From Enterobacteria phage GEC-3S, in the sequence record HE978309: a stretch of DNA of 64,000 bases. The stretch is one strand, 5' to 3'. The notes under the pieces were generated by a model. It searched no databases, was not told the origin of the DNA, and saw only the letters and a list, made by a program, of their open reading frames with translations. The stretch's first letter is position 1. Each line of letters opens with the position of its first letter. The position numbers and the translations under genes were made by a program. This document shows positions 52,020-58,648 of the stretch, piece by piece.

Positions 52020-52055
52020 TTTATTGGGGGAGTATTCCCCCATTTGGAGTAACAT

Positions 52056-52796
52056 ATGTTTAACAACACTCTTTTTGCTCGCCTTGAATCGCAAAAGGAT
52101 TATGAGAATACACGACAAACAGAGATTCTTAATCCTTATGTAAACTTTCACAAATATACAAATACTCAGACGTTAGCCGACGTTATGGTCGCCGAAGCTA
52201 TTCAGATGCGAGGTGTAGAATTATATTACATCCCTCGTGAATTTGTCAAACCAGATATGATCTTTGGTGAGGATGTTCAAAGCAAATTTACTAAAGCATG
52301 GAAATTTGCGGCTTATATTAACTCATTTGATGGGTATGAAGGAGCGGGTAATTTCTTCTCTAGTTTCGGGTATCAAGCTAATGATGAACTAACTTTTACG
52401 GTTAACCCCAACCTATTCAAGCATCAAGTAGATGGTCAAGAGCCAAAATCAGGTGACTTAATTTATATTCCGATGAGTAATGATCTCTTTGAAATTAATT
52501 ACGTTGAGCCATATCAGCCGTTTTTTCAGGCTGGCAAAAATGCCATGCGTAAAATTATTGCAGAGAAATTCGTATATAGCGGCGAGGAATTGCGACCAGA
52601 ATTACAACGCAATGAGGGAATTAATGTTGATGAGTTTGCGGATCTGGATCTTGCACCGATCACTAATCTGGACGGGTTAACAGATATCAACTTAGATCAG
52701 TACAAAGAAGATAAGCAATTCAGAAGCGAAGGACAAGATTTTATTGATCAGTTTGATCCTATTAATGGCAAGGGTTCACCTTTCGCCGATTTTTGA
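52056..52796 (+). CDS. 14: neck protein gp14
   Basis: 246 aa; position and size as T4 gp14. Confidence 0.8.
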
Positions 52797-52822
52797 TAAA
52801 TACTCATAAACAAGGGGGTCAA

Positions 52823-53656
52823 ATGTTCGGTTGGCACTATAATTCGTCAATTAGACGGTATATTGTATTGCTGGGTAATTTATTCTCCGGCGTACAAATT
52901 AAAAGGGTGCGTAGCGACGGTGAGCGTTTTATTAAAGTTCCTATCACCTACGCAAAGAAAGAAAAATTCATGATGAGTCTGGACAAATATAACAATATCT
53001 CAAGCGAGGAAGACGTAGCAAAGGTAGAAACTATTTTACCGCGTATGTGTCTTTCTTTGATTGATATGACATACGCCCAGAACTTTAAAACAAATATTGC
53101 AAATAAGACAGTACCAAAATATACGGCTGATGGAATCAGGAGTGTGACACAATATAATCCTGTACCATATAAGTTTACCTTCGAGTTGGGGATTTATACA
53201 CGTAACGAAGATGATATGTTTCAGATAATTGAACAGATTCTTCCTTACTTCCAGCCTCATTTTAACTGTAAGATTAAAGAACTACACGGTAATGATGTAT
53301 GGATTGATCGAGATATTCAGGTCACAATTAGTTCTATTACTCCAGATGAACAGGTAGGCGAAGATAAGTTTTCTCGTCGTCGTCTTGAGTGGACCATTAT
53401 GTTCGAATTTATCGGCTTTATATATCCTCCAGCTACCGACGTTAAGGGGGAAATTAGAACGATTTATCTTGATTTTCATGCCAATTCTCGTGAATTGAAT
53501 CCTAGCGGTAATTTTGAATCAGTGGATCACGAGGTCGTTAAACGTGACGTCGAGCAAGAAGATTGGGACGGAACTATCAAAGAATCATATTCTAGTGATA
53601 TTCCAATACCAGTTGCACCGACTCCACCGGGTCCACGTATTGTAAGAGAATTTTAA
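52823..53656 (+). CDS. 15: tail sheath terminator / connector protein gp15
   Basis: start moved to ATG behind AGGGGG (MFGWHYNSSIRRY...), resembling the T4 gp15 N-terminus; track ORF starts at an upstream TTG. Confidence 0.85.
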   Translation: MFGWHYNSSIRRYIVLLGNLFSGVQIKRVRSDGERFIKVPITYAKKEKFMMSLDKYNNISSEEDVAKVETILPRMCLSLIDMTYAQNFKTNIANKTVPKYTADGIRSVTQYNPVPYKFTFELGIYTRNEDDMFQIIEQILPYFQPHFNCKIKELHGNDVWIDRDIQVTISSITPDEQVGEDKFSRRRLEWTIMFEFIGFIYPPATDVKGEIRTIYLDFHANSRELNPSGNFESVDHEVVKRDVEQEDWDGTIKESYSSDIPIPVAPTPPGPRIVREF

Positions 53657-53669
53657 GAGGTAATTTATT

Positions 53670-54167
53670 ATGTCAGATCTAGGCTTAGATATGAAGCAAT
53701 TAATGAATTTCGAAAGTCTAGGTCTTCCGGGGTCATTCGACGCGGAAGAAGATCGAGTGAGCTATGATCCGCTCGTCTTGACTCCGGTCGAAAGCCATCC
53801 AGAAGATCGTAATATTGACTTACAACGAGATTATAATGAGGCACGTCAGAATATTCATTTTCAGAATCAGATGATGATGGACGCCGCAAAGATTTATCTT
53901 GAACTTGCAAAAAATAGTGAGTCTCCGAGGTTCCTACAAGCATTTAACGGCCTCATGCAGCAAATGAGCAACAACAATAAAGAATTGCTGAACATCCATA
54001 AGGATATGAAGAAAATCACCGAGCAAGCTGGAGAGAAAAAGAAAGATAATACCCCAGCCGCACCAGTTAATATCCAGAATGCGACCGTCTTTATGGGTTC
54101 TCCTAGTGATTTAATGGATGAAATAGAAGACGAGGAAGCGCGAGTTATTGAAGGTGAGACAGTATGA
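53670..54167 (+). CDS. 16: terminase small subunit gp16
   Basis: 165 aa; [12 protein letters not shown] and [11 protein letters not shown] resemble T4 gp16. Confidence 0.85.
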
Positions 54168-55990: not shown

Positions 55991-56021
55991 CGATAATGCA
56001 TAAAAAGATGAGGAAATTCTA

Positions 56022-58022
56022 ATGACTCTATTATCACCGGGTTTCGAAACGAAAGAAACTACTCTCTCCACTACCATTGTGCAATCTGCGACTGGTCGCG
56101 CGGCACTGGTAGGTAAATTCCAATGGGGTCCAGCTTTCCAGATTATTCAAGTAACTAATGAAGTTGAATTAGTTAATAAATTTGGTCAGCCGGATAATAA
56201 CACCGCAGACTATTTCATGAGCGGGGCTAACTTCCTCCAGTACGGTAATGATCTGCGTGTTGTTCGTGTATTGAATAAAGAAAAAGCGAAAAACGCAACC
56301 GCACTGGCTGGTAACGTCGAGTTTGAAATCACAAACGAAGGTTCAAACTATGAAGTAGGCGATACCATCAAGATTAAACATAACCGTCAAGATATTGAAA
56401 CGGCGGGTAAAGTAACTAAAGTTGATGGTGATGGTAAAGTTAAGGGCGTATTTATCCCAACTGGTAAAATTATCGCTCACGCTAAAGCAATCGGTGTATA
56501 TCCAGAACTTGGTGGCGATTGGACGGCAGAGTTCACTTCTTCGTCGGGTAACGGTAGTGCGGCGCTGTCAATAACGAAAATTGTTACTGATTCCGGTCTT
56601 CTGTTAACGGATCTGGAAACTTCCCGCGCCAATATCACAAATCAAACTTTCTTGACTAAACTCCAGAAGTATGATATGCCAGCGGTAAGCGCGATCTATG
56701 CTGGTGAGATTGGCAACTCGCTGGAAGTTGAAATTCTGGCACGTAGTGCGTTTAAGAACACAGCACCGGATCTGACCATGTATCCTTATGGTGGCGAGCG
56801 CACCGCAGCACGCAACCTGATTCCATATGCACCGCAGAATGATAATCAATATGCATTTATTGTTCGTCGCGATGGTGTTGTGGTAGAATCCTATGTACTG
56901 TCTACTCTGAAAGGGGATAAAGACGTATATGGCAATTCTATCTACATGGACGACTTCTTTGGTCGTGGTTCTAGCCAGTACATCTATGCAACCGCTCAAG
57001 GGTGGGTAGATGGTTTCAGTGGTATTATCTCTCTTGCCGGTGGTGTTTCTGCTAACGAAGCAACGACGGGTGGAGTTGGTGCTGATCCGTTCATCGGTGC
57101 GATGATGCAAGGTTGGGATCTGTTTGCTGAACGAGAATCTATTCACGTAAACCTGTTGATCGCTGGTGCATGTGCTGGCGAAGGCGATGCGTTCTCTACC
57201 GTACAGAAACATGCTGTTTCCATCGGTGATGAGCGTCAGGATTGCTTAGTAATGGTTTCTCCTCCGCGTAGCACTGTTGTTAATATTCCGGTGACTACTG
57301 CAATTGATAACCTGATTGCATGGCGCGAAGGTTCAGGAAACTATAATGAAAACAACATGAACATTAATACCACTTACGCGGTTATTGATGGTAACTACAA
57401 ATATCAGTATGACAAATACAACGACGTAAACCGTTGGGTTCCGTTGGCTGCTGATATTGCTGGTTTGTGCGCTCGTACTGATGCTGTATCCCAGCCGTGG
57501 ATGAGTCCGGCAGGTTATAACCGTGGTCAGATCATGAACGTGGTTAAACTGGCAATTGAGCCTCGCAAGGCGCACCGCGATCGTCTGTATCAGGCCGCAA
57601 TTAACCCGGTGATCGGTGCTGGCGGTGAAGGGTTTATCCTGATGGGTGATAAAACCGCTACGACTGTTCCTAGCCCGTTTGACCGCATTAACGTTCGTCG
57701 TCTGTTTAACATGCTGAAAAAGAATATCGGTGATTCAAGCAAATACAAACTGTTTGAAAACAACGATAACTTTACTCGCGCTTCCTTCCGTATGGAGGTT
57801 TCGCAATATCTCAGCACGATTCGCTCTCTGGGTGGCATTTATGACTTCCGAGTACAATGCGACACCACGAATAACACGCCGGATGTAATTGATCGTAACG
57901 AATTTGTTGCTAGTATGTTCATTAAACCAGCAAAATCGATCAACTATATCATGCTCAATTTCACTGCTGTTGCAACTGGTTCTGATTTTGACGAAATTAT
58001 CGGTCCAGCTAACCAGGCATAA
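56022..58022 (+). CDS. 18: tail sheath protein gp18
   Basis: 666 aa; position and size as T4 gp18. Confidence 0.95.
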   Translation: MTLLSPGFETKETTLSTTIVQSATGRAALVGKFQWGPAFQIIQVTNEVELVNKFGQPDNNTADYFMSGANFLQYGNDLRVVRVLNKEKAKNATALAGNVEFEITNEGSNYEVGDTIKIKHNRQDIETAGKVTKVDGDGKVKGVFIPTGKIIAHAKAIGVYPELGGDWTAEFTSSSGNGSAALSITKIVTDSGLLLTDLETSRANITNQTFLTKLQKYDMPAVSAIYAGEIGNSLEVEILARSAFKNTAPDLTMYPYGGERTAARNLIPYAPQNDNQYAFIVRRDGVVVESYVLSTLKGDKDVYGNSIYMDDFFGRGSSQYIYATAQGWVDGFSGIISLAGGVSANEATTGGVGADPFIGAMMQGWDLFAERESIHVNLLIAGACAGEGDAFSTVQKHAVSIGDERQDCLVMVSPPRSTVVNIPVTTAIDNLIAWREGSGNYNENNMNINTTYAVIDGNYKYQYDKYNDVNRWVPLAADIAGLCARTDAVSQPWMSPAGYNRGQIMNVVKLAIEPRKAHRDRLYQAAINPVIGAGGEGFILMGDKTATTVPSPFDRINVRRLFNMLKKNIGDSSKYKLFENNDNFTRASFRMEVSQYLSTIRSLGGIYDFRVQCDTTNNTPDVIDRNEFVASMFIKPAKSINYIMLNFTAVATGSDFDEIIGPANQA

Positions 58023-58095
58023 TCAGTAAATTAGCATAGATTAAAAGTTAAATCAAGCGGGGAGAAAATCCCCGCTCTATTAAGGAATATCAATT

Positions 58096-58590
58096 ATGGC
58101 ACTCGATTTGAATGATATTACACGCGGTTTCGAGTCTGGCGATTTTGCTCGTCCTAACCTGTTTGAAGTTGAGATCCCGTATTTGGGGCAAAACTTTAAG
58201 CTGATGTGTAAGGCTGCGACTGTCCCGGCTGCTACCGTAGAAAAAATTGCTATAGGCTATCAAAACCGTAAAATTAACATCGCTGGCGACCGTGTATACG
58301 ACGACTGGACCATCACTGTATTCAACGATGACGCACACAAGATCCGTGATGCTATCGTTGCGTGGAGCGATCAGACACATGGCACAGGTTCGGCGATCAC
58401 TGGTGCAACTCCTGCACAATATAAGAAACAAGCTATTGTTCGTCAACTTAACCGCAACACCGAATCAACTAGCGAAAAAACATTGTACGGTATTTTCCCG
58501 ACCAACGTTGGTGAAGTAACCCTCGATTGGGAACAAAACAACGAAGTTGAAACGTTTGAAGTTACTTTTGCTATCGATTGGGTAGAATAA
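58096..58590 (+). CDS. 19: tail tube protein gp19
   Basis: 164 aa; N-terminus RGFESGDFARPNLFEVEIPYLGQNF resembles T4 gp19. Confidence 0.95.
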   Translation: MALDLNDITRGFESGDFARPNLFEVEIPYLGQNFKLMCKAATVPAATVEKIAIGYQNRKINIAGDRVYDDWTITVFNDDAHKIRDAIVAWSDQTHGTGSAITGATPAQYKKQAIVRQLNRNTESTSEKTLYGIFPTNVGEVTLDWEQNNEVETFEVTFAIDWVE

Positions 58591-58648
58591 ATATATTATC
58601 ATGCGGGGAGAAGTTCCCCGCCTAATTTCTCCCAATTCGAGGTGAATA

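Follow-up and report, generated by a model that had tools for sequence, protein, structure and literature searches.

GC-rich hairpins lacking U-tracts behind late genes 13, 18 and 19 of the RB49-type phage GEC-3S: probable leaky punctuation of polycistronic messages

The 64,000-nucleotide (nt) stretch of Enterobacteria phage GEC-3S analysed here (sequence record HE978309; hereafter, the window) comes from an RB49-type Krischvirus (Straboviridae), and its late virion gene block carries three short GC-clamped hairpins, termed H1, H2 and H3, in the spacers behind genes 13, 18 and 19. Over positions 51000-59000, the identity to Escherichia phage RB49 is 98.9%, and within this block a window position equals the RB49 position minus 30820. 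Following the RB49 annotation, gene 13 spans 51087-52019, gene 14 spans 52056-52796, gene 18 (sheath) spans 56022-58022, gene 19 (tube) spans 58096-58590 and gene 20 (portal) spans 58649-60214; the gene names used in the initial annotation, which had placed the hairpins after genes 13, 18 and 19, are correct given this identity. A scan of the whole window against Rfam yielded no family reaching its gathering score.

All three hairpins are present on the plus strand exactly where they had been reported. H1 (T-GGGGGA-gtat-TCCCCC-A, 52025-52042; 7 base pairs (bp), ΔG -12.1 kcal/mol) lies in the 36-nt gene 13/14 spacer, 5 nt past the gene 13 stop and 13 nt ahead of the gene 14 ATG, with the gene 14 Shine-Dalgarno sequence GGAG (52046-52049, plus strand) 4 nt past it. 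H2 (AGCGGGGA-gaaaa-TCCCCGCT, 58056-58076; 8 bp, ΔG -15.2 kcal/mol) sits in the 73-nt gene 18/19 spacer, which folds with a z score of -3.3; it starts 33 nt past the gene 18 stop and ends 19 nt ahead of the gene 19 ATG, and the gene 19 Shine-Dalgarno sequence AAGGA (58082-58086, plus strand), 6 nt past the hairpin, has a probability of 0.61-0.69 of being unpaired in the read-through context. H3 (GCGGGGA-gaagt-TCCCCGC, 58603-58621; 7 bp, ΔG -12.9 kcal/mol) occupies the 58-nt gene 19/20 spacer, 12 nt past the gene 19 stop and 27 nt ahead of the gene 20 ATG. H2 and H3 are identical at 17/19 positions, and the gaps between each of the three hairpins and the following ATG are already occupied by Shine-Dalgarno sequences.

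A chance origin of these structures is excluded. In the window, GGGGA-N3-7-TCCCC was counted 6 times where 0.07 would be expected, and the late block (47871-64000) contains four perfect stems that reach 7 bp or more and include 5 or more G-C pairs, compared with 0.47 ± 0.64 in shuffled sequences. All four are intergenic, the spacers making up about 390 nt, or roughly 2.4% of the block. The fourth stem (51047-51067) belongs to a canonical terminator located after wac, AAAGGGGC-gttaa-GCCCCTTT followed by TTCGTTT (51047-51072, plus strand), which TransTerm lists as 'wac-->13' in RB49. Directly after this stem stands UUUUUCGUUU, unlike the situation at H1-H3, where the tails read AUUUGGAG, CUAUUAAGG and CUAAUUUCU, respectively; the reported lack of a downstream U-run is therefore correct in the strict sense. 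The same phage uses U-tract terminators at 51047, 16106, 27088, 29063 and 31562, so that the omission at H1-H3 looks deliberate—a real contrast within one genome. The stems themselves, at 7-8 bp with 5-6 G-C pairs and ΔG values of -12 to -15 kcal/mol, are GC-rich in the manner of terminators, and a lenient terminator scan still accepts H3 on the plus strand and H2 on the minus strand.

The distribution of late promoters bears directly on what the hairpins can do. Exact TATAAATA boxes were found on the plus strand at 55983 (P18), 61576 (P22) and 62429 (P23), matching the published RB49 list, in which P18, P22 and P23 are the only late promoters of this block. P18 (55983-55990, plus strand; Pl:86777 in RB49) is the sole recognised promoter able to feed genes 18 and 19. 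The NATAAATA late-promoter box is absent from the plus strand both at 55990-58586 and at 44887-52795, and none lies between H1, H2 or H3 and the next ATG, which leaves the downstream genes without the promoter of their own that one looks for behind a terminator. With no promoter past the hairpins, gene 14 is transcribed only through H1, and gene 19 only from P18 through H2; H3, in turn, lies downstream of the only candidate promoter of gene 20, so that this gene is transcribed through H3 whichever promoter is used. Genes 14, 19 and 20 are essential structural genes, and in the T4 tail gp19 is present in the same copy number as gp18. The earlier view that the hairpins are unlikely to be efficient terminators is thus supported by operon logic, the messages for all three genes requiring read-through; the initial interpretation, which also has them as putative RNA 3'-end stabilisers or processing sites, is in this way partly supported. 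Genes 13 and 14 seem to depend on transcription past the U-tract terminator of wac, or else on an unrecognised promoter. Additionally, a late-promoter-like box, GATAAATA (52795-52802), overlaps the gene 14 stop ahead of gene 15.

Gene 20 has one putative promoter nearby, found by allowing any base at position 1 of the box. This candidate variant late promoter, AATAAATA (58586-58593, plus strand), has A at -13 and overlaps the gene 19 stop; the bases tattatcat and then H3 follow it. If the box is placed at -13 to -6, as in T4, transcription is predicted to start at about 58599 (58598-58601), 2-5 nt ahead of the H3 stem. A at -13 is found at 9/50 T4 late-promoter sites, more often than any other variant (PMC2988020), and position -13 is poorly conserved in the late promoters of RB49 (PMC1524935). 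Moreover, the AATAAATA box at 58586 is invariant in four Krischvirus, and phages PEi20 and Bp7 display the same geometry, with the same 'attatca' spacer, after a perfect TATAAATA. Further AATAAATA boxes stand just upstream of start codons at 31268-31275 (plus strand) and 31141-31134 (minus strand).

We examined the conservation of the hairpins within Krischvirus. The H2 and H3 stems (14-16 stem positions) are unchanged in RB49, JK32, phiS and G2248, whereas the loops differ: gaaaa, gaagt or gaaa (the last in G2248) at H2, and gaagt or, in JK32, ttat at H3. The H2 loop of JK32 is the H3 loop of the window (gaagt). A search of IMG/VR with gp19 returned seven loci, two of them from Krischvirus, too few for a large covariation set; three distant loci had unclear hairpins.

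We also compared the gene 13-24 block of T4 and 14 further Straboviridae, folding the 18/19 and 19/20 spacers of each. The sample covered Slopekvirus, Karamvirus, Tulanevirus, a Providencia phage, Kanagawavirus, Gelderlandvirus, Marfavirus, Jiaodavirus, Dhakavirus, Mosigvirus, an Acinetobacter Twarogvirinae phage, Biquartavirus, an unclassified Vibrio phage and Tegunavirus (with T4, 14 genera plus the Vibrio phage), from hosts including Escherichia, Klebsiella, Cronobacter, Salmonella, Edwardsiella, Yersinia, Providencia, Aeromonas, Acinetobacter and Vibrio. A GC-rich hairpin stands a few nucleotides past the gene 18 stop in 15/15 phages, and a hairpin likewise occupies the 19/20 spacer in 15/15, directly ahead of gene 20 where a mobile open reading frame (ORF) intervenes. 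Between genera the stem sequences are unrelated—position is conserved and sequence is not—and most of these orthologous hairpins also lack a U-run. Other spacers in the same loci (17/18, 21/22 and 22/23) range from 9 to 59 nt, most of them not exceeding about 30 nt. Four of these spacers, read directly in the window and T4, contain a late-promoter box only, with no hairpin. At the two junctions, the coding-strand loops are UUCG in nine cases and GNRA in seven (eight if H2 of G2248 is counted), and not one of the principal 18/19 and 19/20 hairpins has the complementary loop CGAA or UYNC. Because it is only in RNA, and only when read on the coding strand, that UUCG and GNRA loops are special, this bias points to a function of the sense-strand RNA. 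Invariant stems with variable loops, together with the loop bias, suggest that the late message is under selection for an RNA stem; the same pattern disfavours a protein site that depends on the loop, a cruciform in the DNA and an antisense terminator. The last of these, as a barrier to read-in on the early strand, was rejected on two grounds: the minus-strand tails (GAUUUAACUU, AUGAUAAUAU and AUAAAUCAAA) are no richer in U, and the sense-strand loop bias speaks against it.

Hairpin and late promoter adjoin each other in most genera, in one of two arrangements. The hairpin precedes (T/C)ATAAATA at 18/19 (twice) and 19/20 in T4, at 18/19 in KP15, and in Karam-, Mosig-, Jiaoda-, Marfa- and Biquartavirus; the promoter precedes the hairpin at 19/20 in KP15 (TATAAATAcaGGGGTA), in PEi20 (TATAAATAgtattatcaAGGAGAC) and in Bp7 (TATAAATAgaattatcaAGGAGC). 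The T4 19/20 hairpin, GGGGA-gaaa-TCCCC, is nearly the same as H2 and H3: its core GGGGAGAAATCCCC is near-identical to GGGGAGAAAATCCCC and GGGGAGAAGTTCCCC of the window at an orthologous position, and its gaaa loop is exactly that of H2 in G2248. In T4, a TATAAATA late promoter follows about 25 nt downstream, so that the hairpin there may truly end upstream messages; in the window, by contrast, the sole promoter candidate lies upstream of the 19/20 hairpin. The two elements also overlap physically in places. In T4-like genera, the last base of the hairpin is often the first base of the late-promoter box (GCCCC-TATAAATA, GGTCC-ATAAATA), and phages of Acinetobacter and Yersinia carry the box within the loop of the hairpin. 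This overlap is a late-promoter counterpart of the promoter-early stem-loop (PeSL) and PmSL cassettes, and we found no description of it in the literature examined.

Around H3, folding additionally predicts a long-range helix. Its 5' arm (58570-58587, plus strand) is made of the last 18 nt of the gene 19 coding sequence, and its 3' arm (58627-58643, plus strand) includes the gene 20 Shine-Dalgarno sequence GAGG (58639-58642). In a fold of 58570-58670 (101 nt), the arms pair with a probability of 0.5-1.0, mostly above 0.9, and the same helix is present in the 141-nt minimum-energy structure, with H3 as its apical hairpin and the AATAAATA box in the loop. The predicted duplex energy is -17.9 kcal/mol, compared with -9.6 ± 2.6 for shuffled 3' segments (3/500 and 6/500); the corresponding duplexes reach -23.6 in JK32 (0/500) and -14.9 in T4 (3/500 and 6/500), with 26/500 for Mosigvirus. 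The 19/20 junction is the only significant one among nine in the window and eight in T4 (z about -3 in both), and no such masking helix was found at H1 or H2, where duplex z scores are +0.1 and +1.4. In JK32 the helix is kept and tightened: a bulge is lost through deletion of one U, and a U.G pair becomes C-G through a synonymous U-to-C change. The gene 20 Shine-Dalgarno sequence is, moreover, the least accessible of eight late genes in the read-through context (0.05-0.19, versus 0.21-0.74 for the others). Transcripts initiated at the predicted start near 58599 would lack the 5' arm, which ends at 58587. The 5' arm is itself coding sequence, and its match is partly constrained by a conserved Trp codon. 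The 19/20 spacer has an alternative fold, in which the H3 5' arm plus loop, GGGAGAAGUU (58606-58615), pairs over 10 bp with AAUUUCUCCC (58624-58633); the two folds are near-isoenergetic in the window (-16.2 vs -16.0), and in JK32 the alternative is much weaker (-10.3 vs -19.9).

Drawing on these observations, we consider it probable, albeit with considerable reservation, that H1-H3 act as sense-strand RNA stem-loops providing leaky punctuation of the polycistronic late mRNA. Under such a scheme, RNA polymerase, having started at one of a few late promoters (P18 in the case of genes 18 and 19, with continuation into gene 20), would transcribe through the hairpins, each of which could stop a minority of the polymerases, block 3'-to-5' exonucleases on RNA ending just past it or cap the 5' end of RNA starting just ahead of it. 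The operon would thereby be split into segments of unequal abundance, chiefly the high-copy sheath and tube versus the low-copy portal. H3 could play two parts, as the 5'-terminal hairpin of a gene 20 transcript from AATAAATA and as the apical hairpin of the predicted masking helix; in the former case it would be comparable to an ompA-type 5' hairpin, its stem lying 2-5 nt from the predicted 5' end provided that the start obeys the T4 box rule. The idea that the hairpins tune the stoichiometry of sheath, tube and portal transcripts, put forward in the initial annotation, fits best at 19/20, the tube-to-portal step, where the demand for a step-down is clearest.

There are precedents for hairpins of this kind. 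Intercistronic stem-loops and REP elements (malE-malF, puf) shield upstream mRNA from 3' exonucleases, and H1-H3 resemble them in combining a stable hairpin with unequal product demand, no U-tract and a requirement for read-through; unlike the REP family, they are not dispersed imperfect palindromes. Tuerk et al. reportedly described, in 1988, unusually stable UUCG and GNRA tetraloop hairpins in T4 intercistronic regions. The likeness here is that of short, stable sense-strand hairpins between cistrons, with UUCG or GNRA loops at the orthologous sites among the 15 phages, whereas the window loops GUAU, GAAAA and GAAGU are not canonical; H2 of G2248 has GAAA.

Several points weigh against the leaky-punctuation reading. 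The AATAAATA box is missing from the published RB49 late-promoter list, and TransTerm scores in RB49 are 96 for H1 and 100 for H3. In T4 and most genera, hairpins followed by a late promoter of their own could be genuine terminators, in which case the RB49-type arrangement might be a remnant rather than a tuned device. A spacer with an H1-type hairpin between genes 13 and 14 was found in none of the 13 reliably annotated taxa outside Krischvirus, where the two genes are separated by at most 16 nt or overlap (a 159-nt gap in Ac42 looks like a mis-annotated start, and the D483 locus lacks these genes). The helix at gene 20 is sensitive to context: its pair probability is only 0.01-0.16 in windows of 200-600 nt, and the accessibility of the gene 20 Shine-Dalgarno sequence in promoter-initiated RNA is 0.62 or 0.05, depending on the downstream context. 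In the literature examined, we found no transcript-end, half-life or termination data for Krischvirus and no transcript-end mapping for T4 genes 18-20; a T4 omics paper gives early and late classes only, without abundances. Finally, PeSL211/210 of RB49, a stem-loop with no U-run, was reported to lower the expression of downstream lacZ to the same degree as rrnB T1 (PMC2839356). Its sequence, AGGGGATcacgtATCCCCT plus ATACTACAC, belongs to the same G(n)-loop-C(n) class without a U-tract, which makes some attenuation at H1-H3 quite possible.

At H3, a different emphasis deserves consideration, namely that this hairpin serves chiefly in translational control of gene 20: read-through RNA from P18 would mask the Shine-Dalgarno sequence, and gene 20 would be translated only from a short RNA initiated at AATAAATA, or only as the helix is unwound by a ribosome at the end of gene 19. 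The strength of the helix in the 101-nt fold, its duplex energy at the sole significant junction, the tightening in JK32 and the low accessibility of the Shine-Dalgarno sequence all favour this explanation, as does a known design in T4, where a helix masking the ribosome-binding site of genes e, soc, 49 and I-TevI is bypassed by an internal late promoter (PMC3014915). As in those genes, an upstream strand pairs with the Shine-Dalgarno sequence and transcripts from the late promoter would lack that strand; in contrast to them, the upstream message at 19/20 is itself late rather than early, and the structure is a predicted one that varies with the folding context. Gene 20 is not among the described T4 cases. 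Set against the proposal are the low pairing in longer windows, the two accessibility values for the short RNA, the coding nature of the 5' arm, the candidate status of the promoter and the nine other genera in which no significant 19/20 duplex was found; the explanation also applies to H3 alone and not to H1 or H2. We regard it as possible without calling it probable. The masking helix, accordingly graded as a tentative lead with moderate evidence from RNA folding, is the only part of the picture that might be new. In its fullest form, which we put forward with more doubt, the lead would amount to an undescribed RNA switch in RB49- and T4-type phages, in which base pairing around the conserved 19/20 hairpin, between the 3' end of the gene 19 reading frame and the site where ribosomes bind gene 20, uncouples the portal gene from the much more heavily expressed gene 19. 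The internal late promoter (AATAAATA in RB49, TATAAATA in T4) would then yield the only freely translatable gene 20 message, or initiation on gene 20 would depend on ribosomes finishing gene 19.

Annotators, for their part, have assumed that such hairpins are ordinary, reasonably efficient intrinsic terminators ending the gene 13, 18 and 19 messages. The hairpins themselves are already catalogued as putative terminators and are of known classes. Additional file 6 of the 2006 RB49 genome paper by Nolan et al. lists TransTerm terminators '13-->14' at 82846-82861 and '19-->20' at 89423-89441 (PMC1524935), which correspond to window positions 52026-52041 (H1) and 58603-58621 (H3); H2 is not on that list. 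The GenBank record of the Krischvirus G2248 annotates H2 and H3 as 'putative terminator', the Makalu_001 record marks H2 on the minus strand, and the KP15 record annotates the orthologous 19/20 hairpin as a terminator. The RB49 and G2248 entries concern the same sequences as H1-H3, but they are software calls, and the operon logic argues against them as far as efficient termination is concerned. Together with the TransTerm scores and the lacZ effect of PeSL211/210, these records speak for termination; yet efficient termination would abolish expression of essential genes, given that genes 14 and 19 have no promoter past their hairpins and that H3 lies past the gene 20 candidate, and gp19 is needed in the copy number of gp18. 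Nor do the tails carry the U-run found at 51047 and at four other sites of this phage. On balance, we find efficient termination unlikely, and leaky punctuation remains our preferred reading.

We judge it quite unlikely that the hairpins act at the level of DNA, as the stem-loop part of PeSL-type recombination linkers, with H2 and H3 forming a direct repeat that brackets gene 19. The PeSL cassettes of RB49 and phi1 contain G-run/loop/C-run stem-loops (PMC2839356, PMC4122927), and H1-H3 share this layout—G(n)-loop-C(n) in an intergenic spacer ahead of a Shine-Dalgarno sequence and ATG—as well as the lineage and the U-tract-less form. The near-identity of H2 and H3 and the occurrence of the window H3 loop at H2 of JK32 would fit an exchange between the two sites. 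The insertion in phiS, an ORF with an HNH-like motif and its own G-run hairpin exactly between gene 18 and H2, also agrees with such a role. Nevertheless, no significant sigma-70 promoter accompanies H1-H3, where 9/12 matches occur at chance level only (36 versus 41.5 expected), and membership in the PeSL class was rejected for this reason. Unlike PeSLs, H1-H3 belong to late-strand messages of the conserved core virion module, and relatives couple the orthologous hairpins to late promoters; with respect to the hyperplastic regions typical of PeSLs, an ORF is inserted exactly at H2 in phiS, and other insertions and deletions fall elsewhere. Furthermore, UUCG and GNRA loops confined to the sense strand are not predicted by a role in DNA.

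We consider it very unlikely that the hairpins are recognised or cleaved by a particular RNase, such as RegB acting at GGAG or RNase E acting beside the stem. GGAG does occur at the junction of 5' arm and loop in H1, H2 and H3, RB49 encodes RegB, and H1 and H2 are preceded by AU-rich stretches of single strand that contain RAUUW-like motifs. However, RAUUW carries little information in AT-rich spacers, and GGAG is missing from most of the orthologous hairpins. According to a review, RegB does not act on late transcripts, and secondary structure shields RNA from cleavage (PMC3014915). The RegB site is ruled out by JK32, whose H3 (GGGGATTATTCCCC) has lost GGAG and kept the stem.

The stakes of the leaky-punctuation reading are modest. 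Should it hold, it would help to explain how about 138 sheath and tube subunits are made per 12 portal subunits, and more generally how unequal amounts are drawn from shared late messages with very few promoters; gp20 is described in one report as forming a dodecamer (PMC3012670). The 'terminator' features copied into many phage GenBank records would then be misleading at these sites. If the pairing of hairpin and late promoter and the masking of gene 20 were confirmed, they would add one more case to a known class of post-transcriptional control in T4.

Mobile or unknown ORFs interrupt the late block in several relatives. In phiS (locus positions 2351-3045, corresponding to 58023-58055 of the window), an AU-rich stretch of 33 nt is replaced by the G-run hairpin AGGGGGAG-gtcaa-CTCCCCC plus an ORF of 199 amino acids with the HNH-like motif, the stop of which lies 2 nt ahead of H2; H2 thus stays linked to gene 19, and a separate upstream hairpin arrives with the inserted ORF. 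In G2494 (2038-2793 and 4190-7301), an ORF annotated as a group I intron endonuclease lies between genes 14 and 15, and gene 17 is interrupted. Gelderlandvirus and Dhakavirus have additional ORFs in the interval between genes 18 and 19, as does Bp7 between genes 19 and 20 (with a faint SegE GIY-YIG match); these ORFs lie at 8350-8970 of locus L008 and at 8499-9170 and 9767-10348 of locus L011; Pfam matches of the inserted ORFs are weak. The hairpins as insertion hot-spots were considered and rejected: phiS fits this idea, but the G2494 insertions at 14/15 and inside gene 17 lie away from them.

The early region holds related elements. At least nine PeSL-type cassettes lie on the minus strand between 942 and 28584 (e.g., 11375-11393, 20702-20721, 26764-26782 and 28565-28584). 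In each, a G-run/C-run stem-loop with no U-tract stands either beside TTGACA and the -10 box or between the two, ahead of small ORFs on the minus strand; the copy at 11375-11393 has exactly the stem-loop of PeSL211/210 from RB49, which was assayed with lacZ. A near copy of H2, AGCGGGA-gaaaa-TCCCGCT (4043-4061, sense on the minus strand), is one G-C pair shorter and stands between two early genes; UUUU follows it directly, and it corresponds to the TransTerm prediction 'RB49ORF055c<--nrdD' in RB49. H2, H3 and this hairpin form a small sequence family.

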